From: Gemmatimonadota bacterium
GTDB lineage: Bacteria; Gemmatimonadota; Gemmatimonadetes; Gemmatimonadales; GWC2-71-9
NCBI GenBank assembly: GCA_003220795.1
Contig: QHTK01000058.1
Location: forward strand, 756-64,755
Direction of reading: 5' to 3'
Length of the DNA stretch: 64,000 nt
Each line of letters begins with the position of its first letter. Position 1 is the first letter of the stretch. The notes below the pieces were generated by a model. The model was not told the origin of the DNA. It saw only the letters and a list, made by a program, of their open reading frames with translations, and did no database searches. A program made the translations under genes and the position numbers. This document shows, in pieces, positions 9,780 to 56,453 of the stretch.

Positions 9780-11479
9780 GGCCGGTCCTCGGACTGCTCC
9801 TGCTCGTGGTGGGTTGCGGGAACGGGGAAGGGGGAAGGGGGAAGGGGAACTACGATGTGCTCCTCCGTGGCGGCTGGATCGTGGACGGCAGCGGCAATCC
9901 GCGCTACCGGGGCGATGTGGCGATCGCGGGAGACCGAATCGCGGGCCTCGGGTTCCTGGCGGGCGCCCAGGCCCGCGAGACGCTCGATGTCTCGGGTCTC
10001 GTCGTGGCGCCGGGATTCATCGACATGATGGGGCAGTCGGAGATCAACGTGCTGATCGACAACCGCGTGCTGTCGAAGGTCACGCAGGGTGTCACGACGG
10101 AGGTGACGGGCGAAGGCGGCTCCATCGCGCCGCTCACCGACAAGCTGGTGCGCGACGACTCCGACGCGATGAAGAAGTGGCACTACCGCGAGGACTGGCG
10201 CGATCTGGACGGCTACGTCACCCAGCTCGAGCGCCACGGTTCCACGGTGAACATCGCGACGTTCGTGGGCGCGACCCAGGTGCGCCTCGCCGTGATCGGG
10301 AACGCGAACCGGCAGCCGACCACGCCCGAGCTCGCCCACATGGCGGCGTTGGTGGACACCCTGATGCAGCAAGGCGCGCTGGGCGTGTGGACCGCGCTCG
10401 AATACGCGCCGGCGAGCTACTCGACGACCAACGAAATCATCGCGCTCGCGCGAGCGGCGCGGCGCCACGGCGGCATCTATGCGTCGCACATGCGGAACGA
10501 GGGGATCCAGATCGACCAGGCGCTGAACGAGCTGTTCCGCGTCGCGCGGGAGGCCGACATCCCGGCCGAGGTCTCGCACCTCAAGGTGTCCGGCCGGGAC
10601 AGCTGGGGACAAATGCGCCGGGTGATCGCGCGCATTGATTCGGCGCGCGCCTCGGGTCTCGACGTCACCGCGGACCAGTATCCCTACATCAGGGCCGCGA
10701 CCGCGCTCGATGCCTCGATTCCCACGTGGGCGGAGAGCGGCGGCATGGACTCGCTGCTGGCGCGGCTCCGGGACCCGAGGACGCGGGCGCGGCTGCGCCA
10801 GGAGATGCTCCACCCCCGAGGGGGAGCGGAGAGTTTCTATTACGAAGCGGGCGGCGGCGCCGGTGTGCTGATCACCGGCACCTTCCAGGACTCGCTGCGC
10901 GGGCTGCAGGGCAAGACCATCGCCGAGATCGCCGCCGCCCGCCACCGCGACGCCGTCGAGACGCTGTTCGACATCGTGCTCGCCGAAGGCGGCCATCGCA
11001 CCGACGCCGTATACGCCGTGATGAGCGAGCCCGACGTCCAGGAAGCGATGAAGACGTGGTGGGTGGCCGTGAACACCGACTTCGGCGGCGTGGCGCCCGA
11101 CGGACCGCTCGGCAGCCAGTCCGCTCACCCTCGCGCCTATGGGACATTTGCCCGTATCCTTGGCCACTACGTGCGTGAGCTCAAGCTGTTCCCGCTCGAG
11201 TTCGCCGTGCGGAAGATGACCTCGCTCGCCGCGCAGCGGGTCGGGCTCGGGGACCGCGGCCTGCTCGCGCCCGGCATGGCCGCCGACATCACGATCTTCG
11301 ACGCCAACACCGTGGCCGACCGCGCCACGTTCGAGCGGCCGCATCAGCCGTCCGTGGGGTTCGCGTACGTGTTCGTGAACGGGCAGAAGGTGCTGGACCA
11401 CGGCGCGCTCACGGCCGCCCGGCCCGGTCGCGGGTTGCGGGGCCCCGGCTACGTGCCGCCCGAGCGCCGCGGGCGGTGA
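9767..11479 (+). CDS. D-aminoacylase-like (N-acyl-D-amino-acid deacylase family) amidohydrolase
   Basis: The lipoprotein signal is LLLLVVGC. The motifs DVLLRGGWIVDGSG...DVAIAGDRI...APGFIDMMGQSE and SHLKVSG, together with the C-terminal ADITIFD, resemble the D-aminoacylase family. Confidence 0.85.
   Translation: MGEMRPVLGLLLLVVGCGNGEGGRGKGNYDVLLRGGWIVDGSGNPRYRGDVAIAGDRIAGLGFLAGAQARETLDVSGLVVAPGFIDMMGQSEINVLIDNRVLSKVTQGVTTEVTGEGGSIAPLTDKLVRDDSDAMKKWHYREDWRDLDGYVTQLERHGSTVNIATFVGATQVRLAVIGNANRQPTTPELAHMAALVDTLMQQGALGVWTALEYAPASYSTTNEIIALARAARRHGGIYASHMRNEGIQIDQALNELFRVAREADIPAEVSHLKVSGRDSWGQMRRVIARIDSARASGLDVTADQYPYIRAATALDASIPTWAESGGMDSLLARLRDPRTRARLRQEMLHPRGGAESFYYEAGGGAGVLITGTFQDSLRGLQGKTIAEIAAARHRDAVETLFDIVLAEGGHRTDAVYAVMSEPDVQEAMKTWWVAVNTDFGGVAPDGPLGSQSAHPRAYGTFARILGHYVRELKLFPLEFAVRKMTSLAAQRVGLGDRGLLAPGMAADITIFDANTVADRATFERPHQPSVGFAYVFVNGQKVLDHGALTAARPGRGLRGPGYVPPERRGR
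9818..9850 (+). repeat. tandem G-rich heptamers (GGGGGAA-type), G-quadruplex-capable
   Basis: The sequence is GGGAACGGGGAAGGGGGAAGGGGGAAGGGGAAC, with G-runs of 3, 4, 5, 5 and 4 separated by AA(C). It lies just after the signal-peptide codons of the D-aminoacylase gene. Confidence 0.9.
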
Positions 11480-11853
11480 CCCTCGGCCGGCTCGTCGGCG
11501 CCTGGCTGCCGGTGGCCATCCTCTTCGCCGTCACGCCACCGATCGGATACCGCTGGGACCAGGCGATCGTCCAGAATGCTGTCGTGTGGTCGTTCAACCG
11601 CTGGGAGATCGGGTGGCGGGTCGCCGAGGCCGCAGTGGTGACGCTGTTCGCGGCGCTGTGGTTCGACTCGCTCGGTGCGGGCGGCTGGTGGCTGCTCTTC
11701 TTCCTGGTCGGTCTACTCGTCGCCTTCCCGCGGCGTCTCGTCATGTGGCAGTACGTGGAGCCCCGGCGCCGGCGCGCGCTGCTGGCGCACGCGTCGCTCG
11801 ACGTGGCCCGCTATGTCGGGGCGGGGGCGTTGCTGGCCTGGAGACTCGGCTAG
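11476..11853 (+). CDS. small integral membrane protein, unknown function
   Basis: GTG 11476 overlaps the upstream stop (GTGA). The 125-aa product has 3-4 hydrophobic segments. I recognise no family. Confidence 0.5.
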   Translation: MTLGRLVGAWLPVAILFAVTPPIGYRWDQAIVQNAVVWSFNRWEIGWRVAEAAVVTLFAALWFDSLGAGGWWLLFFLVGLLVAFPRRLVMWQYVEPRRRRALLAHASLDVARYVGAGALLAWRLG

Positions 11854-11906
11854 GCGGCCGCCCACACGCTGTAAGGTTCCGCCAGCCCCGCGCATTACTC
11901 CTTTGA

Positions 11907-12476
11907 GTGGGCCAGACAACGACCAACCTCGTGCCACGTCGCGACGATCCGCCCGTGGATGACCGCGCGCTCGTGGAGCAGCTGCGGGGCGGCGATCAAA
12001 CCGCTCTGGCAGGACTCTATCACCGGCACGCCGGCCGGCTCCTCGGCATCGCCTTCCGGCTGACGGGCTCGCGCAGCGAGGCAGAGGACGTAGTGCAGGA
12101 CGTGTTCGTCGGGCTCCCCCTCGCCGTCCGGCGTTACCACGAACAGGGGGAGTTCGTGGGTTGGCTTCGCACCGTCACCGTTCGTGTGGCGCTGGGTCAT
12201 CTCCGGCGAGAGGGGCGCCGCCGGCAAGTGCCGCTGAACCCGCTTTCGGAGCCGTCGGGGGGAGCGGGGCCGGAGGCGCTGGGGGAGCGGTTGGAGCTCG
12301 AGCGAGCCATCACCACGCTCCCGGACGCCCTGCGCACTGTGTTCGTGTTGAAGGAAGTCGCAGGCTATTCGCACGCGGAGATCGGTCGCATGCTGGGAAT
12401 CCGCACCGGAACGAGCGAAGTGCGTTTGTGCCGAGCCATTCGCACACTGCGACGCGTCCTGGGGAGGGTGCAATGA
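11907..12476 (+). CDS. ECF-type RNA polymerase sigma-70 factor
   Basis: Region 2 reads AEDVVQDVFVGL and region 4 reads LPDALRTVFVLKEVAGYSHAEIGRMLGIRTGTSEVRL. The start codon is uncertain. Confidence 0.85.
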   Translation: MGQTTTNLVPRRDDPPVDDRALVEQLRGGDQTALAGLYHRHAGRLLGIAFRLTGSRSEAEDVVQDVFVGLPLAVRRYHEQGEFVGWLRTVTVRVALGHLRREGRRRQVPLNPLSEPSGGAGPEALGERLELERAITTLPDALRTVFVLKEVAGYSHAEIGRMLGIRTGTSEVRLCRAIRTLRRVLGRVQ

Positions 12477-26957: not shown

Positions 26958-27428
26958 GTTTGCCTGTTCTTGGCCGCCTGCACCCCCGTCACCACCCGAC
27001 CCGACTTCCTGCCGGACCCACGGGCCGCCCGGCTGGTACTCGACGCGCCCCCCGCGCGGGTGACCCCCGAGATCGCGGCACTCGTGACGGCGGAGAGCCT
27101 GCAGGTCGAGCGGATGAACGTGCTCGACGGGTATGTGGAGACGGCCTGGTACGACACGCAGTCCCGCCGGTCATTTCGGGGCACCGGAGACGTCCCCGAC
27201 CTCGCCGCCACGGTGAAGATCCGCTGCTGGGCGGATCCCTACGTGCCGGGACAGACGCACCTCACCGTGGAAACGGTGTCGCGCCCTCGCTACGACCCGT
27301 CCCGCACCGAGCGCGATCTCGAGGTGGTCGTGCCCAAGACGCACGCGGGACACACGATCGCCGACTCGCTCGTCGCGGCGCTCAAGAAGCGCTTTGGGAC
27401 ACCCAACTCCGCACCCACCGCTCCATGA
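26907..27428 (+). CDS. hypothetical lipoprotein
   Basis: It has a lipobox (CLFLAAC) followed by a non-repetitive 150-aa region. The start is uncertain: GTG 26907 lies in the hairpin loop, and ATG 26862 overlaps the upstream TAA. Part of the signal peptide is encoded by the right repeat arm. Confidence 0.5.
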   Translation: MPRDPTLLFRVPTSAFRVCLFLAACTPVTTRPDFLPDPRAARLVLDAPPARVTPEIAALVTAESLQVERMNVLDGYVETAWYDTQSRRSFRGTGDVPDLAATVKIRCWADPYVPGQTHLTVETVSRPRYDPSRTERDLEVVVPKTHAGHTIADSLVAALKKRFGTPNSAPTAP

Positions 27429-28200
27429 CGTCCAGATCCAGCATGGCGTCCCGGCACGGGCCGTTGGGGAGTCGCATCGTGAGCCCGAGGACCGGGAGCT
27501 TGCCGGCGACGTCCCGCAGACCGGTCGTCATGTCGCGCTCGCACGCCACGGCCACCACGGCTCGCGGGCGCCGCTCGCGGATCACGCGCCGCGCGAGCTG
27601 CCCGCGGGTCGCCACGAACACCGGTACCTCGTAGCGTCCGGCGATCGCCAGCACGCCATCCAGCGCCTGTTTCGAGAGACAGCGCGGGATCAACACCAGC
27701 AGCTCGCCCTTCCCCACGCTGCGCCGACGGCGCTCGGCGAGGGCGTTGTAGACGTCGATGGCGGCGTGCTCCGCCCAGTCCCGCCGACCGAAGAGGCGGG
27801 CGAGGTAGGAGGTGAAACTCATGACGTGCAGGTACGGCCCGCGCTCGAGCAGCCCCTCCGGCAGCAGCAGCACGCTTCCATAAAAGGAAAGCAGCAGCAG
27901 TACGAACCATAGCGCGCACGCGCCGGCCCCGACTGCCAGCGCGACCCACAGCAGCGCGGGCAGCGCGGGAAGCACGGCCTCGAGCCGCGGCGCGAGTAGG
28001 AAGATCAGCGCCCCGGTCGCACCGAAGCCGACCGCCAGTGTCAGGGCGGCGAGCCGGAAGAACAGTCCGGGAGGTGCCGAGAAGTCGCCGTTGCCGGGGA
28101 GCGGCTTGCCGTCCCACTCGTCCCACTCGTGACCCAGGCGGCGGTCTGTCTCGATATGGATGAGCTGGGCACGCGGCGCGTCGGCAGGCATCACGGTCAA
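27382..28200 (-). CDS. membrane protein, DUF116-like
   Basis: Two N-terminal TM helices are followed by a Cys-containing soluble domain (LIPRCLSK, VAVACERD, PNGPCRD). The family assignment is from memory only. Confidence 0.55.
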   Translation of the reverse strand: MTVMPADAPRAQLIHIETDRRLGHEWDEWDGKPLPGNGDFSAPPGLFFRLAALTLAVGFGATGALIFLLAPRLEAVLPALPALLWVALAVGAGACALWFVLLLLSFYGSVLLLPEGLLERGPYLHVMSFTSYLARLFGRRDWAEHAAIDVYNALAERRRRSVGKGELLVLIPRCLSKQALDGVLAIAGRYEVPVFVATRGQLARRVIRERRPRAVVAVACERDMTTGLRDVAGKLPVLGLTMRLPNGPCRDAMLDLDVMERWVRSWVSQSAS

Positions 28201-28241
28201 GCATCACCCGGGCGTCTGGCGGTGTCAAGCTGACAGCGCGC

Positions 28242-29858
28242 GTGGTAATTTCCACCGTGCCCCACGCGGCCCTTCTCCCTGCCCCTGTCCCCGGCCTCAC
28301 CACCGACGAGCGCGTCCGCGCCGCGTACTCAGAGGGCGCTGGGATCTACCGGATCGTCCCGGCCGGCGTCGCCCTACCGCGCGGCGTGGAAGAGCTGCAG
28401 GCGCTGGTGCGCTGGGCGGCGGAGACGCGCACCCCGCTGGTGCCGCGCGGGGCGGGCAGCGGCATGCCGGGGGGAGGGGTGGGGCGCGGGGTGGTGGTCG
28501 ACCTGAGTCCCGGATTCCACTGGATCGCCCCCGATTGGTCCCACCGCGCCGTATGGGTCGGCGCATCGGTCACGGCGGCGGACATCAGCGACGCGGCCCG
28601 TCCGTTCGGCCTGCGGCTCGCGCCCGACCCATCGTCGGGGGCGTTCGCGACCTCGGGCGGCCTGACGGCGACCAACGCCGCGGGGCCACGCTCGGTGCGC
28701 TGCGGCAGCGTGCGGGCGTGGGTCGACGCGGTCGAGATCGTCGAGGCCGACGGGACGGCGCGCCGGGTGACACGGGGAGCAGGGAGATGGGAGAGGTTCG
28801 TCGTGTCACCCGACCAGCGGCGGCTCGTCGACGCCCGCTTTCCCAAGACCCGCAAGAACTCGAGCGGCTACGCGTTGGACCGTTACGCCGAGTCGGGCGA
28901 CGAGCTGGATCTCCTGATCGGGGCCGAGGGGACGCTCGCGCTCGTCACCGCCGTGCGGTGGCGGCTCGAGCCGATCCCCCCCGACGTCGCCGGAGCGTCA
29001 CTCGGCTTCGGCAGCCTCGACGCGCTCGCCCAAGCGGTACCCTTTCTGATCGCGCTCAACCCGTCGGCCGTCGAGCTGCTCGACCGCACGTTCCTCGAGC
29101 TGGTGCGCGGCGATGGGCTCGACCTGCCCGGCGGCATCGAAGGGCTGCTCCTGGTGGAGTTCGAGCGCGACACTCGGGCTGCGGCGCGCGGCGTCGTAGG
29201 GGACGCGGTCCGCGGTCTCAAGACCTCGACGGTGCACGTCGCCACGGCGGTGGATCGGGGAGGGCTGGAGCGGCTCTGGTCCGTGCGAAAGCTCGCCAGT
29301 CCCGCACTCGCGCGCCTCCCTCCGTCACGGCGCTCGCTCCAGGTCGTGGAGGACGGCTGTGTGCCGCTCGAGCGGCTGGCGGAATACATCGCCGGCGTTC
29401 GCGCGGCGGCCGAGCGCTGCGGCGTGCCGGTCGCGCTGTTCGGCCACGCGGGCGACGGTCATGTGCACGTGAACGCCCTCCCCGACACGACCGTGCCGGG
29501 GTGGCAGGAGGCGCTCGCCGGTCTGTTCGCGGCGGTGACCGAGCTGCTTGTCAAGCTGGAAGGCACGCCGTCGGGGGAGCACGGCGACGGCCGCCTGCGC
29601 GCCGGGCTGCTGGAGCGGTTCTACGGCGCCGACGTGGTGGCACTGTTTCGCGATGTGAAGCGGGCGTACGACCCCCGGGCGATCCTCAATCCCGGTGTTA
29701 TACTCCCCTCGCCCGAGTGGGCGCCCCTCTCCGATCTGAAGGTCGGTGCGGCCGCGGCCCCGATCCCCGACGACATCGGCGCGCGCTTGCGCGAGATCGA
29801 ACGGACCGCCGGCTGGGCCACACCGAAGCTGGAGCTGGCGCGATCCTCGAGCCCCTAG
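28242..29858 (+). CDS. FAD-linked oxidase (GlcD / D-lactate dehydrogenase-like)
   Basis: The FAD-binding PCMH region reads PLVPRGAGSGMPGG. The C-terminal motifs are GHAGDGHVHVN and GEHGDGRLR. Confidence 0.85.
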   Translation: MVISTVPHAALLPAPVPGLTTDERVRAAYSEGAGIYRIVPAGVALPRGVEELQALVRWAAETRTPLVPRGAGSGMPGGGVGRGVVVDLSPGFHWIAPDWSHRAVWVGASVTAADISDAARPFGLRLAPDPSSGAFATSGGLTATNAAGPRSVRCGSVRAWVDAVEIVEADGTARRVTRGAGRWERFVVSPDQRRLVDARFPKTRKNSSGYALDRYAESGDELDLLIGAEGTLALVTAVRWRLEPIPPDVAGASLGFGSLDALAQAVPFLIALNPSAVELLDRTFLELVRGDGLDLPGGIEGLLLVEFERDTRAAARGVVGDAVRGLKTSTVHVATAVDRGGLERLWSVRKLASPALARLPPSRRSLQVVEDGCVPLERLAEYIAGVRAAAERCGVPVALFGHAGDGHVHVNALPDTTVPGWQEALAGLFAAVTELLVKLEGTPSGEHGDGRLRAGLLERFYGADVVALFRDVKRAYDPRAILNPGVILPSPEWAPLSDLKVGAAAAPIPDDIGARLREIERTAGWATPKLELARSSSP

Positions 29859-29875
29859 CCCCGAGCCCCGAGCTC

Positions 29876-30628
29876 ATGGAAATCTTCCGCGCCCCGCGCG
29901 TCACGCTGATCGCCCGGCCTGAGTTCCTCGAGCCCGAGCACCTGCGGGTGCAGTGGCGCGGCGACTCCTCTCCCGGGGAGCGGCTCGCGGAATTCGCCGG
30001 GCGGATCTGCTACATGAGCCAGCACAACCCCGCGCACCGCAGCACGGCGGAATATCTCGAGAACATCAAGAAGCAGGGACACGGCTCGGTGTTGGAGCAC
30101 GCAGTCTACGTGCTGTTGATCGAAGGGATCTCGCGCTCCTGCTCGCACGAGCTGGTGCGGCACCGGGCGGGCTTCGGCTACTCGCAGCTATCGCAGCGCT
30201 ACGTAGACGAATCCCACGCGGCGTTCGTCCTGCCGCCGGCGATCATCGGGGACGCGACGCTCGAGCGCGAGTGGGAACGCGAGGTCGCGGACGCCCAGGC
30301 GGCGTACGTGCGCGCCGTGGACGGGCTCATGCAGCGGTTCGAGTGGGTCGCCGACAAGGTGCACCGCCGGAAGCTGGCGCGTGAGGCCGCGCGCAGCGTC
30401 CTGCCGAACGCGACCGAGGTGAAGATCGTCGTGTCGGGCAACGCGCGCGCCTGGCGCACGATGCTCGAGCTGCGGTGCGGCGAGGGCGCGGAGCTCGAGA
30501 TCCGCCGGATGGCAATCGCATGTCTGCGCGCGTTGCAGCGGGAAGCCTCCGCGCTGTTCTCCGATTTCGAGATCTACGTCGCGGACGACACACAGGAAGC
30601 AGCGCGCGTCGCGTATCACAAAGTTTGA
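29876..30628 (+). CDS. thyX: FAD-dependent thymidylate synthase
   Basis: It carries the ThyX signature RHRAGFGYSQLSQRY (RHR-x7-S-x-RY) and HGSVLEH. The track ORF 28160..30628 is real only from ATG 29876. Confidence 0.92.
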   Translation: MEIFRAPRVTLIARPEFLEPEHLRVQWRGDSSPGERLAEFAGRICYMSQHNPAHRSTAEYLENIKKQGHGSVLEHAVYVLLIEGISRSCSHELVRHRAGFGYSQLSQRYVDESHAAFVLPPAIIGDATLEREWEREVADAQAAYVRAVDGLMQRFEWVADKVHRRKLAREAARSVLPNATEVKIVVSGNARAWRTMLELRCGEGAELEIRRMAIACLRALQREASALFSDFEIYVADDTQEAARVAYHKV

Positions 30629-30661
30629 GGTCCGACGTCGAAAAAAATCCGTACTTCCCTA

Positions 30662-30690
30662 TTGCGCATCCCGCCGACGCGTCGTATTGT
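30662..30690 (+). promoter_or_regulatory. candidate sigma70-type promoter with an embedded palindromic operator, upstream of the ATP-grasp/KamA cassette
   Basis: The element is TTGCGC (30662-67), a 17-nt spacer, then TATTGT (30685-90). The spacer contains the perfect palindrome CGACGCGTCG (30675-84). A related palindrome, CGACGTCG, lies at 30633-40. Confidence 0.35.
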
Positions 30691-30764
30691 CTACTCGACA
30701 GCGAGTTGCTGATTCCCGGACCGCACCAGCGGCCTTTTTTTGTAGGAGGTCACCCCGAGACCAC

Positions 30765-31856
30765 ATGCGCATCGGTCTCGCTTACAACCAGAAACCGGAC
30801 ACCGCGAACTCCGCCGCAGAGCCCTCGAGTACCAACGACGCGTTCGCCGAGTGGGACGACCCGTCCACCATCGCTGCGGTGGAGCAGGCTCTCGGTCTCT
30901 TCGGCAGCGTCGTCCGACTCGAAGCCGATCAAGCCTTCCCGCAGCAGGTCGCACTCACCCGCCCCGATCTCGTGTTCAACATGGCCGAGGGACTCCGGGG
31001 CCAGAGTCGCGAAGCGCTGGTGCCCGCGATCTGCGAGTACCTGAACATTCCGTACACGGGCTCCGATCCCCTGACGCTCGGGTTGTCACTCCACAAGGGG
31101 CGCACCAAAGAGATTCTCGCGTACCGCGGCGTGCCCACGGCGCCGTTTGCGTGCGTCGAGACGCAAGCGGAGCTGGAGCGGTTGCGGCTGCCGTTCCCCG
31201 TGTTCGTCAAGCCGGTCGCTGAAGGGTCTGGTAAAGGTGTATTCAGCAATAACTTATGCGACACGCCCGCGCGGTTACGTGAGCGCGCGCTGTTCCTGCT
31301 CGAGCGCTATGCGGAGCCGGTGCTGGTCGAGACATATCTCCCGGGCCCTGAGTTCACCGTGGCGATCCTCGGCAACGGGGCGGCGGCGTATTGTCTGCCG
31401 GTGATCGGTTTCGATTTCTCGGCGCTGCCACCCGGCGCGCCGCCCGTGTACGGCTACGAGGCCAAGTGGGTGTGGGACCGACCGGAAGCGCCGCTCGCGA
31501 TTTTCCAATGCCCGGCGCTCGTGCCGGCGGGCCTGTACGCCGAGATCGAGCGCACCGCCCTCGACGCCTACCAGGCACTCGGTTGCCGCGACTGGTGTCG
31601 CATCGACATCCGCGTCGATCGCTTCGGCGTGCCGAACATTCTCGAGCTCAACCCCCTGCCCGGAATCATCCCCGATCCCGCGATGAACTCGTGCTTTCCC
31701 AAGGCCGCGCGGGCGGCCGGCTTCGGCTACGACGAGTTGATCCAGGAGGTCGTTCGCATCTCCTGGCGGCGGCTGACGGGAAAAGACATCGCGGTGGGGA
31801 CACGCGGAGCGCCGCAGCATGCCGCGCCCCCGCAGGTCGCCGGGATCACGGCGTGA
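30765..31856 (+). CDS. ATP-grasp ligase, D-Ala-D-Ala-ligase-like but non-canonical (cassette gene 1)
   Basis: AGGAGG lies at 30744-49. The Ddl_C-type motifs are FPVFVKPVAEGSGKGV, VLVETYLPGPEFTV and ILELNPLPG. It lacks the canonical Ddl N-terminal GGxSxEHEVS motif and begins MRIGLAYNQKPD. Confidence 0.85.
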   Translation: MRIGLAYNQKPDTANSAAEPSSTNDAFAEWDDPSTIAAVEQALGLFGSVVRLEADQAFPQQVALTRPDLVFNMAEGLRGQSREALVPAICEYLNIPYTGSDPLTLGLSLHKGRTKEILAYRGVPTAPFACVETQAELERLRLPFPVFVKPVAEGSGKGVFSNNLCDTPARLRERALFLLERYAEPVLVETYLPGPEFTVAILGNGAAAYCLPVIGFDFSALPPGAPPVYGYEAKWVWDRPEAPLAIFQCPALVPAGLYAEIERTALDAYQALGCRDWCRIDIRVDRFGVPNILELNPLPGIIPDPAMNSCFPKAARAAGFGYDELIQEVVRISWRRLTGKDIAVGTRGAPQHAAPPQVAGITA

Positions 31857-32872
31857 GGATCGTCATCCTGTACGACCCGGGAGCCGCCGACTGGACCCCC
31901 GAGGACATCCGTGGCGTGATGAAGGCCGTGGACGAGATCGGGACGATCTTCGCCGCCCGCGGGCACGAGATCCGCAAGGTTCCGGTGCGGCACGACCTGC
32001 GATGGTTCGCGGTGGCGCGGCGGGCCGACCTCGTCTTCAACCTGTGCGAGGGCGTGCACGGCAAGAGCGAGTGGGAGGAGCACGTGGTCGGGTCGCTCGA
32101 GTTCGCCGGCGTCCCGATCACCGGCGCGAGCCTGTGGACGATCGCCGCCTGCCGTCGCAAGGCGGTCGCCAACGCCCTGCTCGCGCAGTCCGGTCTCCCG
32201 ATTCCGCGCTGGACCATCGCGCAGGGGAAGATCGACGACGACTTCCCGCTGCCCGCCATCGTCAAGCCGGCCGCCGAAGACGCGAGCGCCGGGCTCGACC
32301 GCGGCTCGGTCGTCGCCGACCGGAAGGCGCTGCGCGCCCGCGTCGCCGCGATGACCGAGCAGTTCGACGAAGTGCTCGTGCAGGAGTACATCGCGGGCCG
32401 CGAGTTCAACGTGGGGTTCGTCGGCACCCGCACCCTCCCCATCGCCGAGATCGATTTCACCCGCATGCCGGAAGGCGCCTGGCCGATTCTCACCTACGCC
32501 GGCAAATGGGAAGCCGGATCACCCGACGACCTGGGCAGCGTGCCCGTGTGCCCGGCCGCGATTCCCCAGAAGCTCGCCGAGCGGCTCGGCAAGCTGGCGG
32601 AGGCGGCGTGGCGGGTCATGCAGGGGAAAGGGTACGGCCGCGTGGACCTGCGGCTCGACCAAGAGGGGCGCCCCTGGGTCCTCGAGGTGAACCCGAACCC
32701 CGACTTGAATGACGATGCCGGCCTCTCCCGGATGGCGAAGGCGGCCGGCTGGGACTACGCGGAGCTGGTGCGCCGGATCGCGGAGGTGGCGCTCCGTGAC
32801 GCCCAGGGCGTGAGCGCGGCCCGTGACCTGCTTGCTCCGCCCCGTCGGGCGCGCGCAACGCGCACCGCTTGA
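31853..32872 (+). CDS. ATP-grasp ligase, D-Ala-D-Ala-ligase-like but non-canonical (cassette gene 2)
   Basis: It overlaps gene 1 by GTGA. The motifs are PAIVKPAAEDASAGL, VLVQEYIAGREFNVG and VLEVNPNPDL. Its N-terminus (VRIVILYDPGA) resembles that of gene 1, suggesting paralogy. Confidence 0.85.
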   Translation: MRIVILYDPGAADWTPEDIRGVMKAVDEIGTIFAARGHEIRKVPVRHDLRWFAVARRADLVFNLCEGVHGKSEWEEHVVGSLEFAGVPITGASLWTIAACRRKAVANALLAQSGLPIPRWTIAQGKIDDDFPLPAIVKPAAEDASAGLDRGSVVADRKALRARVAAMTEQFDEVLVQEYIAGREFNVGFVGTRTLPIAEIDFTRMPEGAWPILTYAGKWEAGSPDDLGSVPVCPAAIPQKLAERLGKLAEAAWRVMQGKGYGRVDLRLDQEGRPWVLEVNPNPDLNDDAGLSRMAKAAGWDYAELVRRIAEVALRDAQGVSAARDLLAPPRRARATRTA

Positions 32873-33323
32873 ACGGCTCACCCGGGCGACGGGTCTCTTC
32901 CGCCCCGAGGAGGTCGCGCTCGCGGTCGAGCTGCTCGACGATAACCTCGCCGGGGACGACGATTACCGATTCCTGGGTGCGTACGCGGGCGAGGACCTCG
33001 TGGGCTACGCCTGCTGGGGGCCCACCCCGGGAACACAGGGCACCTACGACCTGTACTGGATCGTCGTCGATCCGACCTGGCAAGGGAAGGGCGTCGGCAC
33101 GCGGCTCCTCGCCGCGGTCGAGCAAACGCTGATCGCCGACCGCGGTCGGCTGATTGTCGTCGAGACGTCGTCGCGCGCCGACTACGCGCCGACCCGCAGC
33201 TTCTACGAGCGGCGCGGGTACGCGCAGGCGGCTCGGCTCCGGGGGTATTACGCTCCGGCCGACGACTTGGTGATCTACCGGAAGGACTTGGTGGATGGCG
33301 TCCTGGCAACAACGACTGCGTAA
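32823..33323 (+). CDS. GNAT-family N-acetyltransferase (cassette gene 3)
   Basis: The acetyl-CoA motif A reads WIVVDPTWQGKGVGTRLL, followed by FYERRGY. It overlaps the gene 2 end. The start (GTG 32823 or a later TTG) is uncertain. Confidence 0.8.
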   Translation: MTCLLRPVGRAQRAPLERLTRATGLFRPEEVALAVELLDDNLAGDDDYRFLGAYAGEDLVGYACWGPTPGTQGTYDLYWIVVDPTWQGKGVGTRLLAAVEQTLIADRGRLIVVETSSRADYAPTRSFYERRGYAQAARLRGYYAPADDLVIYRKDLVDGVLATTTA

Positions 33324-34374
33324 CCAGAGCCTCGCCTCGCTGGAAGCCCTCGTCGCCCGGTTCGGGCCCGAGCACTTCCCCGACCTCGGGCGCCTGCGCC
33401 AGGCAGCCGAGAACTTCGAGTTCCGCATCTCGCCCGCCATGGTGGATCTCATCAAGTCGCCCGGCGACCCGATCTGGCGGCAATACGTCCCGGACCTCCA
33501 GGAGCTCGAAGTACACGACGGGATGGTGGATTCGCTCGCCGAGGACGCGCACTCTCCCGTCCCCAATATCACGCATCGCTACCCGGACCGGGCGTTGTTC
33601 CTCGTTTCGCCGGTGTGCGCCTCGTATTGCCGCTTCTGCACCCGGCGCCGCAAGGTCGGTGATCCCGAGAAGATCCCGCTGTCCCAGCTCGAGTCGGCGT
33701 TCCGCTACCTGGAACAGCACAGCGAGATCCGCGACGTCATCATGTCCGGCGGCGATCCCCTGCTCCTCTCGGATCGCCGGATCGAGGAGCTCTGCAAGCG
33801 GCTGCGATCGATTCCCCACCTCGAGATCATCCGGATCGGGAGCCGCATCCCGTGCCACCTGCCGGAACGAATCACGCCGGAGCTGTGCGACATCCTCGAG
33901 AAGTATCACCCCCTCTACATCAACACGCACTTCAACCACCCCGACGAGCTCACCCCGGCCGCGGTGCGCGCGCTCGGCATGCTCGCGGACGCCGGTGTCC
34001 CCCTGGGATGCCAGACCGTGCTCCTCAAGGGCGTGAACGACGACGCCGCGGTGATGAAGCGCCTGATGCAGAAGCTCCTCACCGCGCGGGTGCGCCCGTA
34101 CTACATCTATATGTGTGACCAGGTCGCGGGGGCGGAGCATTTCCGCACCACGGTCGAGAAGGGGCTCGAGATCATCAAGGCGTTGCGGGGCTGGACGTCT
34201 GGGCTCGCCGTGCCGCACTTCGTAATCGACGCGCCGGGCGGCGGCGGCAAGATCCCGCTCCTCCCGGAGTACGTCGAGTCCATCACGGACGAGGAAGTGG
34301 TGCTCCGGAACTACGCCGGACAGCGATACGTGTACAAGCAGCCGGAGGCAGCCGAGCCGATCCTCGTCGGCTAG
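33295..34374 (+). CDS. KamA-family radical-SAM/PLP 2,3-aminomutase (lysine 2,3-aminomutase-like; cassette gene 4)
   Basis: The radical-SAM cluster motif is CASYCRFCTRR. KamA-type motifs are SGGDPL, LLKGVNDD, VRPYYIYMCD, EHFRT and the PLP-lysine loop DAPGGGGK. It overlaps the GNAT gene by 29 nt. Confidence 0.9.
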   Translation: MASWQQRLRNQSLASLEALVARFGPEHFPDLGRLRQAAENFEFRISPAMVDLIKSPGDPIWRQYVPDLQELEVHDGMVDSLAEDAHSPVPNITHRYPDRALFLVSPVCASYCRFCTRRRKVGDPEKIPLSQLESAFRYLEQHSEIRDVIMSGGDPLLLSDRRIEELCKRLRSIPHLEIIRIGSRIPCHLPERITPELCDILEKYHPLYINTHFNHPDELTPAAVRALGMLADAGVPLGCQTVLLKGVNDDAAVMKRLMQKLLTARVRPYYIYMCDQVAGAEHFRTTVEKGLEIIKALRGWTSGLAVPHFVIDAPGGGGKIPLLPEYVESITDEEVVLRNYAGQRYVYKQPEAAEPILVG

Positions 34375-34901
34375 GGGTTGGCCTCGCCCCCCCCGCCTTC
34401 GCTTTTTCCCCAGCGTTTCCTCGGAACGCCCGCGACCCGACGCTCCCTCAAGTACCGTTGCAGCACCACCACCCGGGCGGCGTCCGCCCCCAGGAAGCGC
34501 CGGCCTTGCATGACCGTTCGAATGGCGCGCGTCAGATCCTCCACCGGGCCGGCCTTGTCGACGAAGCCGTGCGCGCCAGCCTCGAGCACGTCCAGCAGCT
34601 GCTGCTCCTGCGGCAACCCCGTGAGGATGAGCACCCTGGTCCCGGTACCCAGGGCGACGATGCGGCGCGTGGCCTCGAGCCCCCCCTGCCCCGGCATCGC
34701 CAGATCCATCAGGACGACGTCCGGCCGGACCGCGCGAACCCGCTCCACGGCCTCATCGCCGCGCCCGGCTTCGTCGACTACGGTGACACCCCGCTGCTTC
34801 TCCAGGAGCGCGCGCAGGCCGGCGCGGAAGACGACGTGATCGTCGACTAGCATGAGGCGGATGGGTGCACGCGAGCGGCGCGTGTGACCGATGGCAAACA
34901 T
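34371..34901 (-). CDS. response regulator with a NarL/FixJ-type receiver and no recognisable output domain
   Basis: The receiver motifs are IRLMLVDDHVV, PDVVLMDLAMPG and VLILTG. The ~45-aa C-terminal tail has no LuxR-type HTH. Confidence 0.8.
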   Translation of the reverse strand: MFAIGHTRRSRAPIRLMLVDDHVVFRAGLRALLEKQRGVTVVDEAGRGDEAVERVRAVRPDVVLMDLAMPGQGGLEATRRIVALGTGTRVLILTGLPQEQQLLDVLEAGAHGFVDKAGPVEDLTRAIRTVMQGRRFLGADAARVVVLQRYLRERRVAGVPRKRWGKSEGGGGEANP

Positions 34902-35031
34902 GGGCGTGCCCGCTGCAAAAGCCGTGCACCCTGCCGAGCGCAGTACCAGGGTAACTGGCGCGACATCGGAGATGCCTCGGCTCGTCAGTGTGTCGCGCGG
35001 TCGCTACACGTCCCTTGGATCCGCGGTGGCG

Positions 35032-36018
35032 CTACGGCAGCTGCCAGATCTCGACGCGGTTCGCGGTGAGCACGGGAATGAGCACGCGGTTTCGCTTCGC
35101 GTCGTACCCGATGTCGGCCGGGCTCGGAATGCTCGTGACGAGCTTTACCTCCTGACCGGTCTCGTAGCTCGACACGGTGGAATCACTCCAGCTCGAGACG
35201 AGGATCTTGCCGCCGACGACCACGACGCCGTCGAACCCGCCAGGTCCCTTGGCGATCACAGTCGGCGCCTTGTCCTCCGGCTTCCACGCGAGCACCGATC
35301 GTCCACCGAATTCGACGATCACGAAGCGCTTGCCCACGGGGTCGAGCGCGATCCCGTTCGGCCGGCCCAGCGTGTCCCCCCGCACCGCCACCGTCACCTT
35401 GCGATCGGGGCCGATCCGGAACACCCGGTCCGGGCCCGGGTGCAGCACGTTCCCCACGTCGTCGAACTTGATGCCTGAGTCGGTGATGTAGAGCGCGCCC
35501 GTTTGCGCGATCGCGATGTCGTTCAGAAACACGGCGCCCAGCGTCGCAAGACTCACACTGTCGCGAGGGGCCCCGGTTCGGGCGTCGAACGCGCGCACGA
35601 CGTCGATGTCGGCCACCCAGAGCGTATCCCCCAGCAGCGCCAGCCCCTTCGGGGCGTGAAGCGTGACACCGTTGTGGCCGCCCTCGATGAACTTGAGGTT
35701 TTCGACCGCCCCGTCCGGCCGCACTCGGCTGATGAAGCCGTTGTCGTCCTTCGCCGTGGGGCTGCCGTTGATGTTTGAGACGAAATAGATGTCCTGCGCC
35801 GTGTCATGCAACACCGACTCCGGCGCGAGGAATCCTGCGATGGTGGCGACTCTCGTGGCGGCCGGAGGCGGCGGCGTGAGAGGCGGTGGCGCCGGCGACA
35901 CGTGGACGGCCGTGGAGTCCGCCGGCGTCCCCGGGGTCTGGGACGCGGACGGTCTCCTGACCGCGGGCTCGCAGGCCGCGCCCGCGGCGAGCAGCGCGCA
36001 CACCACGCTCCGCCTCAT
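35032..36018 (-). CDS. beta-propeller lipoprotein (SMP-30/gluconolactonase/NHL-like)
   Basis: It overlaps the EF-G paralogue by ATGA. The lipobox is LLAAGAC. Blade-like segments repeat (LYITDSG, PNGIALDP, LWVADI). The track ORF's N-terminal extension was rejected. Confidence 0.7.
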   Translation of the reverse strand: MRRSVVCALLAAGAACEPAVRRPSASQTPGTPADSTAVHVSPAPPPLTPPPPAATRVATIAGFLAPESVLHDTAQDIYFVSNINGSPTAKDDNGFISRVRPDGAVENLKFIEGGHNGVTLHAPKGLALLGDTLWVADIDVVRAFDARTGAPRDSVSLATLGAVFLNDIAIAQTGALYITDSGIKFDDVGNVLHPGPDRVFRIGPDRKVTVAVRGDTLGRPNGIALDPVGKRFVIVEFGGRSVLAWKPEDKAPTVIAKGPGGFDGVVVVGGKILVSSWSDSTVSSYETGQEVKLVTSIPSPADIGYDAKRNRVLIPVLTANRVEIWQLP

Positions 36019-38114
36019 GAGGCCTTCGCCTCCGCCATCTCTTTCTTGCGCGTCTCGATCAGCTTGTGGGCCACCTCCGCCGGCACTTCCTGGTAGACGT
36101 GGAATTTCGACCGGTACGTCCCCCGGCCGTGTGTCAGCGAGTGCAGCGCGGTTGCGTAGCGGTCGAGCTCCGCCTCGGGCACGAGCGCCTTCACTTTGGT
36201 GAGCCGGCCATCCTTTTCGGTGCCCATGATGTGGCCCCGTCGGGAAGAGAGGTCGCCCATCACGGCACCCTGATACTCGTCGGGCGTCCACACGTCGACT
36301 TCCAGGATGGGCTCGAGCAGCACCGGTTTGCAGTTCGGGCTCACGTTCCGGAACGCCAGGATGCCGGCCATCTTGAACGACATTTCGTTGGAGTCGACGT
36401 CGTGGTAGGAGCCGTCGTACAGCTCCACCTTGAAGTCCACCACCGGATACCCCGCCACCGGGCCGCGGGCCGCAGCCTCCTGAATACCGCGCTCCACCGC
36501 CGGGATATACTGGCGCGGGATCACGCCGCCGACGATCTCGTCCGCGAATTGTAACCCGGAGCCCCGGGGCAGCGGAGCAATGCGGATCCAACAGTCGCCG
36601 TACTGGCCGCGGCCGCCGGTCTGCTTCTTATGCTTCCCCTGGCCTTCGGCCTTCCCCCGGAACGTCTCGCGATAGGCGACTCGCGGCTTCGTGGTCACGG
36701 CGTGCACGCCGTACTTGCGCGCCAGCCGGCCCACGATGATTTCGAGATGCCGCTCGCCCAGCCCACGGATCAGCGTCTGTTGCAGCTCCGCGTTGTACTC
36801 GTGCTGGAAGGTCGGGTCCTCCTCGTGCAGCTTGTGCAGGCCGTTCGAGAGCTTCTCTTCCTCGCCGCGCTGCTTGACTTCGATCGCCACGGTGATGACG
36901 GGCTCCGGGAACGGGATCTTGCGCAGCACGATCGGCGCCTCCCGGGTGGACAGCGTGTCGTTCGTGTGCGTGTCGCGCAGCTTCGCGACGACCCCGATGT
37001 CGCCGGCGTGCAGCTCGGCGATCTCGAAGCGGTCCTTCCCGACGTTGACGCACAAGTGGTTCAGCTTCTCGACCGCGGAGCGGGGGGCGTTATACACGTC
37101 CTGCCCGTTGCGCACCGCGCCGGAATAGACGCGAAAGTAGGTCACATCTCCCACGTGCGGCTCGGACATCGTCTTGAACACCTGCGCGACGAACGGCCCG
37201 CCATCCTCCGCCCGCAGCATGATCCGCTCGGCGCTACCCCACTTCTGGGCCTCGACCGGGGGGCGCTCGTCGGGCGCGGGGAAGAGCTCCACCATTTTGG
37301 ACAAGAGGGCGCGCGTCCCGTACGTCAGCTCCGCCGCGCCGCAGAACAGCGGGAATAACTCGCCGTGCGCCATCCCCGCCTTCATGGCGGCGATCGCCTC
37401 ATCCCGCCCGATCTCCTCGCCGCCCAGGTAGCGCTCGAGCAGGGTGTCGTCGGTCTCGGCGATGCGCTCGATCAGCTCCTTCGAGTACCGGTCGAACCGC
37501 TCGCGGTACTCCTCCGGGACGTCCACCTCCTCGTACTCGCCCGCCTTCGTCCCCTTCTTGTACAGGTGACACTTCTTCGAAAACAGATTGATGATCCCGT
37601 GGAAGTCGGGGCCTTCGCCCACGGGGATCTCCACCGGGATCACCTTCGGCGTCAGCTGCCGCTTGATCTGCTCGTACACCCGCTCGAAGCCGGCGTGCTC
37701 CTTGTCCATCAAGGAGACGAAAAACAGCCGCGGGATCCCGCGCCCCTCACAGTAGTCCCACACCTTCTCGGTGCCCACCTCGACCCCACCGGTGGCCGAG
37801 ACGACCACCACGGCGCCGTCCGCCGCGTACACGCCCGCCAGCGCCTCCCCCGTGAAGTCGAGATAGCCGGGTGTGTCGATGAGGTTGAGCTTGGTGTCCA
37901 TCCATTCGGCGACCGCCAAGGCGAGATTGATGGAGTACTTGCGCTCGATTTCGTCGGGAGTGTAATCGGTGAGAGCCGTGCCGTCCTTCACGGCGCCGTG
38001 GCGTTTGCTGGTACCGGCCACGAACGCGAGCGCGTCGACCAGTGAGGTCTTGCCGCTCGCGCCGTGGCCCACGACCGCGACGTTGCGAATCTCCGGTGTC
38101 TTGTACACGCGCAT
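36015..38114 (-). CDS. elongation factor G paralogue (EF-G2-like translational GTPase)
   Basis: The G1 motif is VVGHGASGKTSL and G3 is LIDTPGYLDF. The 699-aa product covers all EF-G domains II-V (GDIGVV, HEEDPTF, PVVDFKVELYDGSYHDVDS). Its P-loop differs from the canonical AHIDAGKTT. Confidence 0.92.
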   Translation of the reverse strand: MRVYKTPEIRNVAVVGHGASGKTSLVDALAFVAGTSKRHGAVKDGTALTDYTPDEIERKYSINLALAVAEWMDTKLNLIDTPGYLDFTGEALAGVYAADGAVVVVSATGGVEVGTEKVWDYCEGRGIPRLFFVSLMDKEHAGFERVYEQIKRQLTPKVIPVEIPVGEGPDFHGIINLFSKKCHLYKKGTKAGEYEEVDVPEEYRERFDRYSKELIERIAETDDTLLERYLGGEEIGRDEAIAAMKAGMAHGELFPLFCGAAELTYGTRALLSKMVELFPAPDERPPVEAQKWGSAERIMLRAEDGGPFVAQVFKTMSEPHVGDVTYFRVYSGAVRNGQDVYNAPRSAVEKLNHLCVNVGKDRFEIAELHAGDIGVVAKLRDTHTNDTLSTREAPIVLRKIPFPEPVITVAIEVKQRGEEEKLSNGLHKLHEEDPTFQHEYNAELQQTLIRGLGERHLEIIVGRLARKYGVHAVTTKPRVAYRETFRGKAEGQGKHKKQTGGRGQYGDCWIRIAPLPRGSGLQFADEIVGGVIPRQYIPAVERGIQEAAARGPVAGYPVVDFKVELYDGSYHDVDSNEMSFKMAGILAFRNVSPNCKPVLLEPILEVDVWTPDEYQGAVMGDLSSRRGHIMGTEKDGRLTKVKALVPEAELDRYATALHSLTHGRGTYRSKFHVYQEVPAEVAHKLIETRKKEMAEAKAS

Positions 38115-38184
38115 CGCGCAGGCAGCTCCGGCAGGGGATCAGGAGAATATGAGGCGGCAAACAGTGACTAGGCTAGACTCCCGC

Positions 38185-39387
38185 TCACTCAAGCGGTTCA
38201 CCACGGTGCGTCTGTGCGTCTAGCCGTTGCATCTCCTGTAACTGCACACTGCTCACGCCTGCTACCACCATGATCGCGCCCGCCAGCATGAACACCGTCC
38301 GCTGTCCCAGCCCGTCGTACGCCCAGCCGGCGCCGAGGGGGCCGACGCTCCGGCCGAGCGCGGCGAACGCCTGCGCGGCGCCGAGGATCGTGCCTTGCTC
38401 CGTGGGGTCGGCATAGATGGAAACGAGCCCCGAGGCCGCCGGCGCGAACAGACTGTTCGCGAAGGCGAGCGGGACCGTCAGGATGTAGAGCTGGAGACTG
38501 TTCATGGCGTACGGCACGGCGGCGATGCTCGCCGCCATCCCGAACAGCCCGACGATCAGCAGGGCGCGCGCCCCGGTGTGCCGCTCGAGACGCCCGAACA
38601 GAAACCCCTGCACGGCCGCGGCGATCACACCGATTACCACGAACAGCCAGCCGAGCTCCTTCGCGCCCCAGCTCAAAGCCTGGGTCGCGTGCAACGGCAA
38701 CGCCACGGTGTAGCCCGCGAAGGAAAATGGGGCGAGGAACCACACGAGCATGAGCGGCCGCAGCCGCTCGCGCCGCAGCGCCTCGCTCATGTGCCCGAGA
38801 TCGAACAGCGGCCGCTCCCGCCGGTGCTCGGCGGCGAGCGACTCGCGCAGGATCACACTCGCCGAGACGAAGTTGATCAGCGAGAGCCCGGCCGCGATGA
38901 GACCGGGGGCGCGGTGCCCCAGGTAGTGGTCCGCGAGCCCGCCGATCATCGGGCCCAGCACGAACCCAATTCCGAACGCCGCGCCGATCGTGCCCATACC
39001 GCGGGCCCGCTCGGCGGGCGGCGTGATGTCCGCCACGTACGCCTGCGCCACCGAGATGTTGCCGCTCGCGAAGCCCGAGATCACGCGTGCGATGAACAGC
39101 AGCGCGTACGAGGGGGCGAACGCGAACAACACGTAGCCGGCGGCATTGAACAACATCGTCGTGAGGAGGATCGGCCGCCGGCCGATCCGGTCCGACAACC
39201 GCCCGAGCAGCGCCGTCGCGACGAACTGCATCGCCGAGAAGACGAACACGAGGGCCCCATAGCCGAGCCCCTGCGCTCCGAAGCGTTGCGCGTACAGCGG
39301 CAGGATCGGCATGATAATCCCGAAGCCGATCAGGTCGATCAGGACCGTGAGAAAGATCACGCCGAGTCGGGAGCGGCTCGCGGCCAT
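38185..39387 (-). CDS. MFS transporter, Tet/TCR-like drug:H+ antiporter family
   Basis: It has 12 TM segments. The motif-A region GRLSDRIGRRPILL and the N-terminus VLIDLIGFGIIMPILP resemble TetA-class pumps. Confidence 0.9.
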   Translation of the reverse strand: MAASRSRLGVIFLTVLIDLIGFGIIMPILPLYAQRFGAQGLGYGALVFVFSAMQFVATALLGRLSDRIGRRPILLTTMLFNAAGYVLFAFAPSYALLFIARVISGFASGNISVAQAYVADITPPAERARGMGTIGAAFGIGFVLGPMIGGLADHYLGHRAPGLIAAGLSLINFVSASVILRESLAAEHRRERPLFDLGHMSEALRRERLRPLMLVWFLAPFSFAGYTVALPLHATQALSWGAKELGWLFVVIGVIAAAVQGFLFGRLERHTGARALLIVGLFGMAASIAAVPYAMNSLQLYILTVPLAFANSLFAPAASGLVSIYADPTEQGTILGAAQAFAALGRSVGPLGAGWAYDGLGQRTVFMLAGAIMVVAGVSSVQLQEMQRLDAQTHRGEPLE

Positions 39388-39521: not shown

Positions 39522-39950
39522 ATGCGAGGCCGATTCGCGCTCTTGATCGCTCTGGGGCTTGCCCTGAGCGTGCCCGCCGTCATGTCAGCACAGGCTGTGG
39601 GTGATTCCGATGGAAAGAAGGTCCGGAAGGACATCCGGCACGACCGCCGCGAGCTGCACGGCGATCGCACGGACATCCGGCACGACACCAGAGACATTCG
39701 CCAGGATCGCCGGGACATCCGGCAGGACCGGCGCGACGTGCGTGAGGACGTGAAGGAAGGCGACCTGAAGGACGCGCGTCAGGACCGGCGCGAGCTGCGC
39801 GGCGATCGCCGCGACCTGCGCCAGGACCGCCGCGATCGTCGCCACGACGTGCGCGACGCACACGCCGACCGCCGCGACCTGCGGCAGGACCGGAAGGACG
39901 TCCACCAAGATCAGGAGCACCAGCAACAGAAGAAGGACAGCACCCGCTGA
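39522..39950 (+). CDS. secreted, highly charged heptad-repeat protein (D/R/H/Q-rich)
   Basis: The signal peptide MRGRFALLIALGLALSVPAVMSAQA is followed by about 14 heptads of the type DRRD(I/L/V)RQ, encoded by degenerate 21-nt DNA repeats. Confidence 0.6.
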   Translation: MRGRFALLIALGLALSVPAVMSAQAVGDSDGKKVRKDIRHDRRELHGDRTDIRHDTRDIRQDRRDIRQDRRDVREDVKEGDLKDARQDRRELRGDRRDLRQDRRDRRHDVRDAHADRRDLRQDRKDVHQDQEHQQQKKDSTR

Positions 39951-55123: not shown

Positions 55124-55126
55124 CCG

Positions 55127-55885: not shown

Positions 55886-55925
55886 GTGATGCCGTCTCCT
55901 TGTCGACAAATTCCCGAGAGACACG

Positions 55926-56252: not shown

Positions 56253-56260
56253 GATCGGGG

Positions 56261-56288
56261 AATATATCAAATTATCTTGATATATCAA
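56261..56288 (-). promoter_or_regulatory. ars promoter with an operator palindrome
   Basis: This is an AT-rich island. The inverted repeat ATATATCAA (56262-70) / TTGATATAT (56277-85) has a 6-bp spacer. The minus strand reads TTGATA-N16-TATATT, ending 8 nt before the arsR ATG. Confidence 0.55.
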
Positions 56289-56453
56289 CGGGAGGGTTGC
56301 TCTGGCGCCCCTGGGGCAGGATGTTCCCCCTCATGGCCAGACTGATGGCCGGCGCCGGGCTGGCCGCGTCAACACCATCTCGATCGCCGTCGCGCGGAGC
56401 CCGGAGCGCACCGCGATCTATTTGCGTGCCGGGCTCATGTTCTGACTGGAGCC

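Follow-up and report, generated by a model that had tools for sequence, protein, structure and literature searches.

A conserved operon of two Ddl-fold ATP-grasp ligases, an N-acetyltransferase and a lysine 2,3-aminomutase-type enzyme: a candidate pathway to amide-linked beta-lysine metabolites

What is made by an operon that combines an enzyme of beta-amino acid formation with two ligases resembling those of cell-wall synthesis? The question is raised by four overlapping genes stacked on the + strand at positions 30765–34374 of a 64,000-nucleotide stretch of Gemmatimonadota DNA (contig QHTK01000058.1; the whole stretch is referred to as the window). The genes encode two ATP-grasp proteins (AG1 and AG2), an N-acetyltransferase (GNAT) and a lysine 2,3-aminomutase-type enzyme (KamA) that belongs to the radical S-adenosylmethionine (SAM)/pyridoxal phosphate (PLP) enzymes. 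The window has a G+C content of approximately 69% and its closest protein matches are all from metagenome-assembled genomes of the Gemmatimonadales. The four genes are one conserved operon, and the chances are about even that this operon builds a small, free, amide-linked metabolite around beta-lysine.

The arrangement is compact. AG1 (30765–31856; ATG start, TGA stop) encodes a Ddl-fold ATP-grasp amide ligase of 363 amino acids, where Ddl denotes D-alanine–D-alanine ligase, and AG2 (31853–32872; GTG start), which overlaps AG1 in the sequence GTGA, encodes a paralogous Ddl-fold ligase of 339 amino acids. The GNAT gene (32823–33323) overlaps AG2 by up to 50 nucleotides and encodes a RimI-like N-acetyltransferase of up to 166 amino acids. 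The last gene (33295–34374; ATG start), with a 29-nucleotide overlap with the GNAT gene, encodes KamA, a short form of the radical-SAM/PLP lysine 2,3-aminomutase with 359 amino acids. An earlier note, made from the window sequence, had described these three overlaps (GTGA, 50 and 29 nucleotides) and they were confirmed here. The Pfam domains are Dala_Dala_lig_C in both AG1 and AG2, Acetyltransf_1 in GNAT, and Radical_SAM together with LAM_C in KamA.

Searches for further copies revealed that the cassette is widespread. A scan of species-representative genomes, one for each species, gave at least 573 loci and a metagenome scan at least 570; the best 80 loci from each were mapped and the gene-order counts rest on these. 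The order AG1-AG2-GNAT-KamA, all on one strand, was present in 70 of the approximately 93 fully flanked loci, spread over several phyla, and KamA was adjacent in approximately 87% of them; the loci were picked by best score, so that these counts are not unbiased frequencies, and some loci are near-duplicates. The hosts named include Gemmatimonadota, Ignavibacteriota, Melioribacter, the isolate Stygiobacter electus, Candidatus Kryptonia, Acidobacteriota, Desulfobacterota, Desulfuromonadales, Geobacteraceae, Rokubacteria, Auribacterota and others, as well as some archaea. The prediction of a single operon, which the note had made from the overlaps, is thus strongly borne out by the gene neighbourhoods.

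Variations on this order were also found. An Oleidesulfovibrio alaskensis-like organism and Desulfovibrio mangrovi have the order sigma-54 activator, KamA, AG, AG, GNAT, and the KamA gene calls of such Desulfovibrio-type loci (484–527 amino acids) probably start too early. In both organisms a −24/−12-like sequence (TGGCAT-N5-TTGC) lies upstream of KamA in the same relative place (L164, 5488–5502; L166, 5457–5471). In the archaeal version the order is GNAT-KamA-AG1 and AG2 is encoded on the opposite strand; the archaeal assignment is suggested by a neighbouring FEN1/XPG gene on one contig (L113). Among 1.8 billion representative proteins, 1024 relatives of AG1 were detected at E ≤ 1e-30, many of which are double ATP-grasp proteins of 650–720 amino acids, and AG1-AG2 fusion proteins make up 18 representative clusters. 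Domain scans and BLAST also identified KamA-AG1 (P0264, P0345), AG1-KamA (P0346) and AG1-GNAT (P0376) fusions.

All-against-all clustering of the flanking open reading frames revealed synteny at the level of the phylum only, and no precursor peptide, transporter, peptidase or other gene conserved with the cassette across phyla. A PADLOC defence-system search with all four proteins gave no match, and no cell-wall gene cluster surrounds the cassette in any of the loci examined. The note had likewise stated that the window cassette is not beside cell-wall genes, and murB, which it placed 22 kb away, lies outside any cell-division/cell-wall cluster. By eye, from the list of open reading frames, murB is at 56454–57521 and its neighbours (54647–57521) are arsenic-resistance-like genes (an ArsC-like low-molecular-weight phosphatase, a methyltransferase and an ArsR-like regulator) and a sigma/anti-sigma pair.

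KamA provides the firmest indication of the chemistry. It contains the motifs CASYCRFCTRR (residues 108–118) and GGGGK (315–319), and its homologues of equal length cover 100% of the protein. The score against the KamA family model (TIGR00238) is 288 bits, above the cut-off of 199, and both the CxxxCxxC motif and the PLP lysine are present, in agreement with the assignment made from the motifs in the note. None of the narrower models reaches its cut-off: AblA (TIGR03820), the best-scoring NCBIfam model, gives 442 bits against 525, glutamate 2,3-aminomutase (TIGR04368) 392 against 650, arginine 2,3-aminomutase (TIGR04468) 324 against 600, and EpmB (TIGR03821) 233 against 369.

Comparison with the structure of the Clostridium subterminale enzyme (2A5H; E = 9.5e-111) places KamA residues C108, C112, C115, R117, D275, D312 and K319 at the positions of C125, C129, C132, R134, D293, D330 and K337, respectively. 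In the cassettes of other loci, the equivalents of the first six are present in 115 of 115 KamA proteins and that of K337 in 114. In the Clostridium enzyme D293 and D330 bind the epsilon-ammonium group of lysine and Arg134 the carboxylate. The side-chain-binding positions of a glutamate or arginine aminomutase would be occupied by residues other than Asp, and KamA keeps both Asp, so that neither assignment fits. Because the active-site residues, including both Asp, are conserved, KamA very probably acts on lysine and yields beta-lysine. The placement among the aminomutase clades that the note had called for is therefore with the lysine enzymes by active site, and below the cut-offs of all four named clades by score. 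KamA is without the C-terminal approximately 55 residues of the Clostridium enzyme and, where that enzyme has the zinc ligand Cys268, KamA has an Asp.

The two ligases share 31% sequence identity. AG1 matches PF07478 with E = 1.4e-29, and its AlphaFold2 model (mean predicted local distance difference test score, 92.4) matches Ddl structures only, over approximately 340 columns with template-modelling scores of 0.7–0.84. The AG2 homologues share a start site with the sequence MR/KxxILYD. Residues were mapped by anchored pairwise alignment to E. coli DdlB residues 62–303, using 44 AG1 and 22 AG2 sequences. Both families retain, invariantly or nearly so, DdlB K97, K144, E148, E187, K215, R255, D257, E270 and N272, while E180 is invariant in AG1 and either Glu or Gln in AG2. 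The fold, the lysines that bind ATP and the Asp, Glu and Asn that bind Mg place both proteins in the ATP-grasp superfamily. As the catalytic residues are complete, ATP-dependent amide formation is expected of both, and AG1 and AG2 should be active acyl-phosphate-forming ligases.

The substrate-binding residues set the two families apart from each other and from Ddl. Ser150 of DdlB corresponds to Ser in 36 and Thr in 6 of the 44 AG1 sequences, and Ser281 to Ser in 38 of 44 (S155 and S309 in AG1 of the window); in the AG2 family both positions are Ala. Tyr216 is replaced by Trp throughout the 22 AG2 sequences and in 17 of the 44 AG1 sequences, the position being otherwise variable in AG1. The AG2 family has two additional Asp residues that are not found in AG1, Asp143 (EDAS motif) and Asp284 (NPNPD, at the position of DdlB Gly276), each in 21 of 22 sequences. 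Based on these positions, the pocket of AG1 would be of the amino-acid type and that of AG2 acidic and suited to binding a cation.

The note had reported that both ligases lack the N-terminal motif of Ddl. The Gly-rich GGxSxE loop is indeed absent; at that place, just before helix 1, there is a near-invariant AE(W/F)D motif (E29 in AG1), the Glu of which may correspond to Ddl Glu15, and in this respect the claim holds in part. As true D-alanine–D-alanine ligases both proteins were rejected: against TIGR01205 and NF002378 AG1 scores 160 and 126 bits and AG2 135 and 118, far below the cut-offs of 243–246, and the Ddl substrate residues Glu15, Ser150, Tyr216 and Ser281 are not kept as a set. This upholds the view of the note that they are atypical Ddl-like ligases (160 and 135 versus 243 bits). 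Like Ddl and VanA they have the three-domain fold and identical ATP, Mg and catalytic residues; unlike them they have a replaced Gly-rich N-terminal loop and a genomic context that, in the loci examined, is never cell wall. There is no second Ddl homologue in the 64-kb window.

The third protein is a member of the GNAT family (PF00583, 55 bits against a cut-off of 20.7, E = 8.8e-15) with the acetyl-CoA motif QGKGVG. The best NCBIfam match is rimI (46.7 bits against a cut-off of 86). The first possible start is the GTG at 32823, and the true start could be a little further downstream because similarity to the solved homologue, PDB 2R7H (E = 4e-37), begins at residue 16. This structure, deposited as a 'putative D-alanine N-acetyltransferase', is the GNAT of a cassette of the same type from the Oleidesulfovibrio alaskensis-like organism (P0399; L164, 9001–9531), and its name, apparently derived from the Ddl-like neighbours, is probably wrong. 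In Desulfovibrio mangrovi (L166, 9629–11386) a 585-residue protein combining a GNAT with a histone-deacetylase-family domain (PF00850, acetylpolyamine-amidohydrolase-like) is encoded directly after the cassette. The position of this PF00850 gene hints that the acetylation may be reversible, as for acetylpolyamines.

A conventional account of the locus would be that KamA and GNAT are the AblA/AblB route to N-epsilon-acetyl-beta-lysine, accompanied by ordinary D-alanine–D-alanine ligases, either by chance or for the cell wall. KamA and a GNAT are the minimal AblAB gene set, AblA is the model that KamA matches best, and the source records annotate the ligases as D-alanine–D-alanine ligase; moreover the methanogen AblA/AblB and Bacillus yodP-kamA pairs resemble the cassette in having a lysine 2,3-aminomutase beside a GNAT, beta-lysine as an intermediate and an acetylated product. 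However, the cassette differs from them by two integral ATP-grasp ligases, a small RimI-like GNAT and a short KamA. The GNAT has no match to AblB (TIGR03827) at E ≤ 0.001 and is half the length of AblB. The shortfall of KamA against the AblA cut-off and of both ligases against those of Ddl, the absence of both Ddl substrate serines from AG2, and the fact that the ligases travel with KamA and GNAT across phyla, fused in some lineages, largely refute this account, which is considered extremely improbable. The note's statement that this is not a plain AblA/AblB pair agrees with the missed AblA cut-off (442 versus 525 bits) and the missing AblB match.

Under the preferred reading, a free metabolite built around beta-lysine, KamA would convert L-lysine to beta-lysine (3,6-diaminohexanoate), for which its active site argues strongly. 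AG1 and AG2 would then each catalyse the formation of one amide bond by way of an acyl-phosphate. AG1 probably joins two amino-acid-like partners, since the Ddl-type serines are kept, and one of these is probably beta-lysine, since AG1 is the ligase that is found fused to KamA. AG2, with its acidic pocket, probably uses a cationic amine, by acylating it or in some other way, and the RimI-like GNAT would acetylate a remaining free amine. Such a pathway would be expected to end in an N-acetylated aminoacyl- or dipeptidyl-beta-lysine. As for the role of this product, the most economical guess is that it is a compatible solute of the cytoplasm or a cation resembling a polyamine.

The closest parallel to this logic is the pathway to phevamine A of Pseudomonas syringae and Erwinia (hsvABC), in which HsvA supplies amidinospermidine, to which valine is added by HsvC and phenylalanine by HsvB (PMC6187163). 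Both systems have an amine-preparing enzyme and two separate ATP-grasp ligases in a compact operon without a nonribosomal peptide synthetase, and the likeness, two ATP-grasp ligases with a cationic-amine enzyme, is one of gene content. The amine of phevamine A is amidinospermidine, made with an amidinotransferase, whereas that of the cassette would be beta-lysine, formed by an aminomutase of the radical-SAM type, or, in some loci, homospermidine. The hsv operon, which encodes no capping GNAT, serves virulence and is narrowly distributed, whereas the cassette is present in many free-living phyla. By analogy, phevamine A appears to be the best precedent found. A second comparison is with N-acetylglutaminylglutamine amide, an N-acetylated dipeptide osmolyte made in Sinorhizobium and Pseudomonas by Ngg and AsnO with GNAT and ATP-grasp activities. 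By description this resembles the cassette in the use of GNAT activity and an ATP-grasp ligase for an N-acetylated product, but Ngg is a single bifunctional protein, there is no beta-amino acid or aminomutase, and the third step is that of an amidotransferase. On this view the cassette would be a compact pathway of ATP-grasp ligation in which the building-block module and the very wide distribution are new.

The ligase pair also occurs with another set of genes. In 11 loci (L050, L052, L066, L083, L084–L089 and L092) AG1-AG2 are preceded by three homospermidine genes (speY-speB-pdaD), which encode a deoxyhypusine-synthase homologue (PF01916), an arginase-family protein (PF00491) and a pyruvoyl arginine decarboxylase (PF01862), and KamA is not adjacent. 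Four of these loci are from genomes of Deltaproteobacteria or Thermodesulfobacteriota and seven are unassigned metagenome contigs. The ligase pair is usually followed by a SAM methyltransferase and, in some loci, by a GNAT. SpeY and SpeB together with arginine decarboxylase make homospermidine from agmatine (PMC13625781), and this polyamine variant would use homospermidine or putrescine instead of beta-lysine. The AG1 and AG2 proteins of the variant resemble those of the KamA type (means of 55% and 45%, respectively) about as closely as they resemble each other (62% and 52%); given this similarity the specificity of the ligases is probably little changed. A possible chemical rationale for the exchange is that beta-lysine (3,6-diaminohexanoate), putrescine and homospermidine have in common a 1,4-diaminobutane unit, whereas the spacing in alpha-lysine is 1,5.

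Several observations weigh against the beta-lysine metabolite. No difference is apparent between the AG1 proteins of the KamA and polyamine variants, which is awkward if AG1 uses beta-lysine directly, and the substrates proposed for both ligases are predicted from a handful of pocket residues. The fusions with KamA are rare, with one or two sequences per cluster. Some Gemmatimonadaceae (L009, L014, L015 and L017) have AG1-AG2-GNAT with no adjacent KamA. The osmolyte role is a guess, because no exporter or regulator is conserved, and the hosts are mostly bacteria of soil, sediment and groundwater, not halophiles. At a further locus, L010, a 462-residue protein (10700–12088) with 29% identity to KamA and no Pfam match at E ≤ 0.001 is encoded instead.

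The short KamA, the polyamine variant and the RimI-like GNAT bear on a different possibility, namely that the cassette modifies a macromolecule, with beta-lysine or, in the variants, an aminobutyl-type polyamine being attached to elongation factor P (EF-P), a ribosomal protein or an envelope or peptidoglycan precursor and then capped by GNAT. KamA is short like EpmB, being without the C-terminal domain of the Clostridium enzyme, and the families that partner the ligases, KamA/EpmB-like and the deoxyhypusine-synthase-like SpeY, are those of EF-P beta-lysylation and IF5A hypusination. The EpmB family is used in the former modification, by bacteria, and the deoxyhypusine synthase family in the latter, by archaea and eukaryotes. 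RimI, the best match of GNAT, is a protein N-terminal acetyltransferase, and ATP-grasp precedents are RimK, which modifies proteins, and the Enterococcus D-aspartate ligase, which modifies peptidoglycan precursors. In EpmB and EpmA, too, a short KamA-family enzyme feeds beta-lysine to an ATP-dependent ligase, but EpmA is a lysyl-tRNA-synthetase paralogue, not an ATP-grasp protein, and there is no efp near the cassette. A tblastn search with the E. coli EF-P sequence found no EF-P gene in the window or within the 7–9 kb covered at 163 loci. No candidate target gene is conserved beside the cassette, KamA is well short of the EpmB cut-off (233 versus 369 bits), no examined locus is in a cell-wall gene cluster, and Ddl-fold enzymes normally use free amino acids. 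Macromolecule modification is accordingly regarded as unlikely. Its more specific form, in which AG1-AG2-GNAT is an EpmA-independent modifier of EF-P or another translation protein and the donor module is swapped between KamA/EpmB-like and SpeY polyamine enzymes, is very unlikely; if true, it would reveal how EF-P is modified in many phyla.

The presence of two ligases with different pockets also recalls cyanophycin synthetase, which has two ligase activities. Here the ligases would polymerise beta-lysine, with or without a second amino acid, to a cyanophycin-like store or an oligo-beta-lysine polycation that GNAT caps or regulates. Beta-lysine oligomers, linked through the epsilon-amine, are contained in streptothricins, and HsvB can add more than one residue (PMC6187163). 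In contrast, AG1 and AG2 are plain Ddl-fold proteins of approximately 340–360 amino acids that carry neither a primer-binding domain nor any other additional one, the neighbourhood contains no conserved depolymerase, an acetyl cap suits a defined small product better, and the polyamine variant cannot polymerise because homospermidine is without a carboxylate. Polymer formation, in which one ligase would extend the backbone and the other add side chains, is quite unlikely.

No published description of the cassette was found in the open full-text literature, in line with the note, which could match it to no characterised pathway; the 2009 amidoligase survey of Iyer and Aravind may mention it. 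Literature searches with the cassette locus tags and with 2R7H found nothing relevant, and the cassette genes are not mentioned in the Desulfovibrio sigma-54 regulome paper. If the preferred reading is right, the acetylated beta-lysine peptide or conjugate would be a new, widespread class of beta-amino-acid metabolite, and the alternative pairing of the ligases with genes for homospermidine would link the chemistry of beta-lysine with that of polyamines. The annotations 'D-alanine–D-alanine ligase' and 'lysine 2,3-aminomutase (AblA)' at such loci should not be taken to denote genes for the cell wall or for N-epsilon-acetyl-beta-lysine. The cassette is present in cultured, tractable bacteria, namely the Oleidesulfovibrio alaskensis-like organism, Desulfovibrio mangrovi and Stygiobacter electus.

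Upstream of AG1, the region between thyX and the cassette (30629–30764, + strand) was aligned for seven Gemmatimonadales loci. The block CTATTGCGCAT (30659–30669) is invariant in the Gemmatimonadales, as is TATTGTCTA (30685–30693), which follows it by approximately 15–17 nucleotides. These are followed by a hairpin (GGACCGC-ACCA-GCGGCC, 30718–30734) with a CCGC/GCGG stem and a variable loop, a run of six to seven T (30735–30741) between the hairpin and the Shine-Dalgarno sequence, and the Shine-Dalgarno sequence GGAGG itself (30745–30749) ahead of AG1. The region looks like a promoter with a 5′ stem or attenuator. A consensus scan of the leader for sigma-70 promoters and terminators identified no promoter, and an Rfam search of 27000–38500 gave no match at E ≤ 1. 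A riboswitch or attenuator was considered and rejected, the fold having a z-score of −0.38 and no covariation despite the conserved sequence blocks. The promoter-like leader proposed in the note is therefore upheld as far as the sequence is conserved in the Gemmatimonadales, but has neither a sigma-70 match nor a significant fold.

The cassette is flanked by thyX upstream (29909–30628) and by a convergent gene for a receiver-domain protein downstream (34371–34901), neither of which is retained beyond close relatives. The latter encodes, on the − strand, a protein of 176 amino acids with a receiver of the NarL/UvrY type, in which no DNA-binding domain was detected. Its gene runs towards KamA, the two stop regions overlapping by 4 nucleotides, and is absent from this position in L001. 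A 699-residue EF-G paralogue is encoded 1.6 kb downstream (36015–38114, − strand), and its position is kept in the Gemmatimonadales loci L001–L003 but not in other phyla. Further downstream, an open reading frame at 39522–39950 (+ strand), noted by eye in the list of open reading frames, has a signal-peptide-like start and a repetitive charged body with DIRHDRR.../DIRQDRR repeats.

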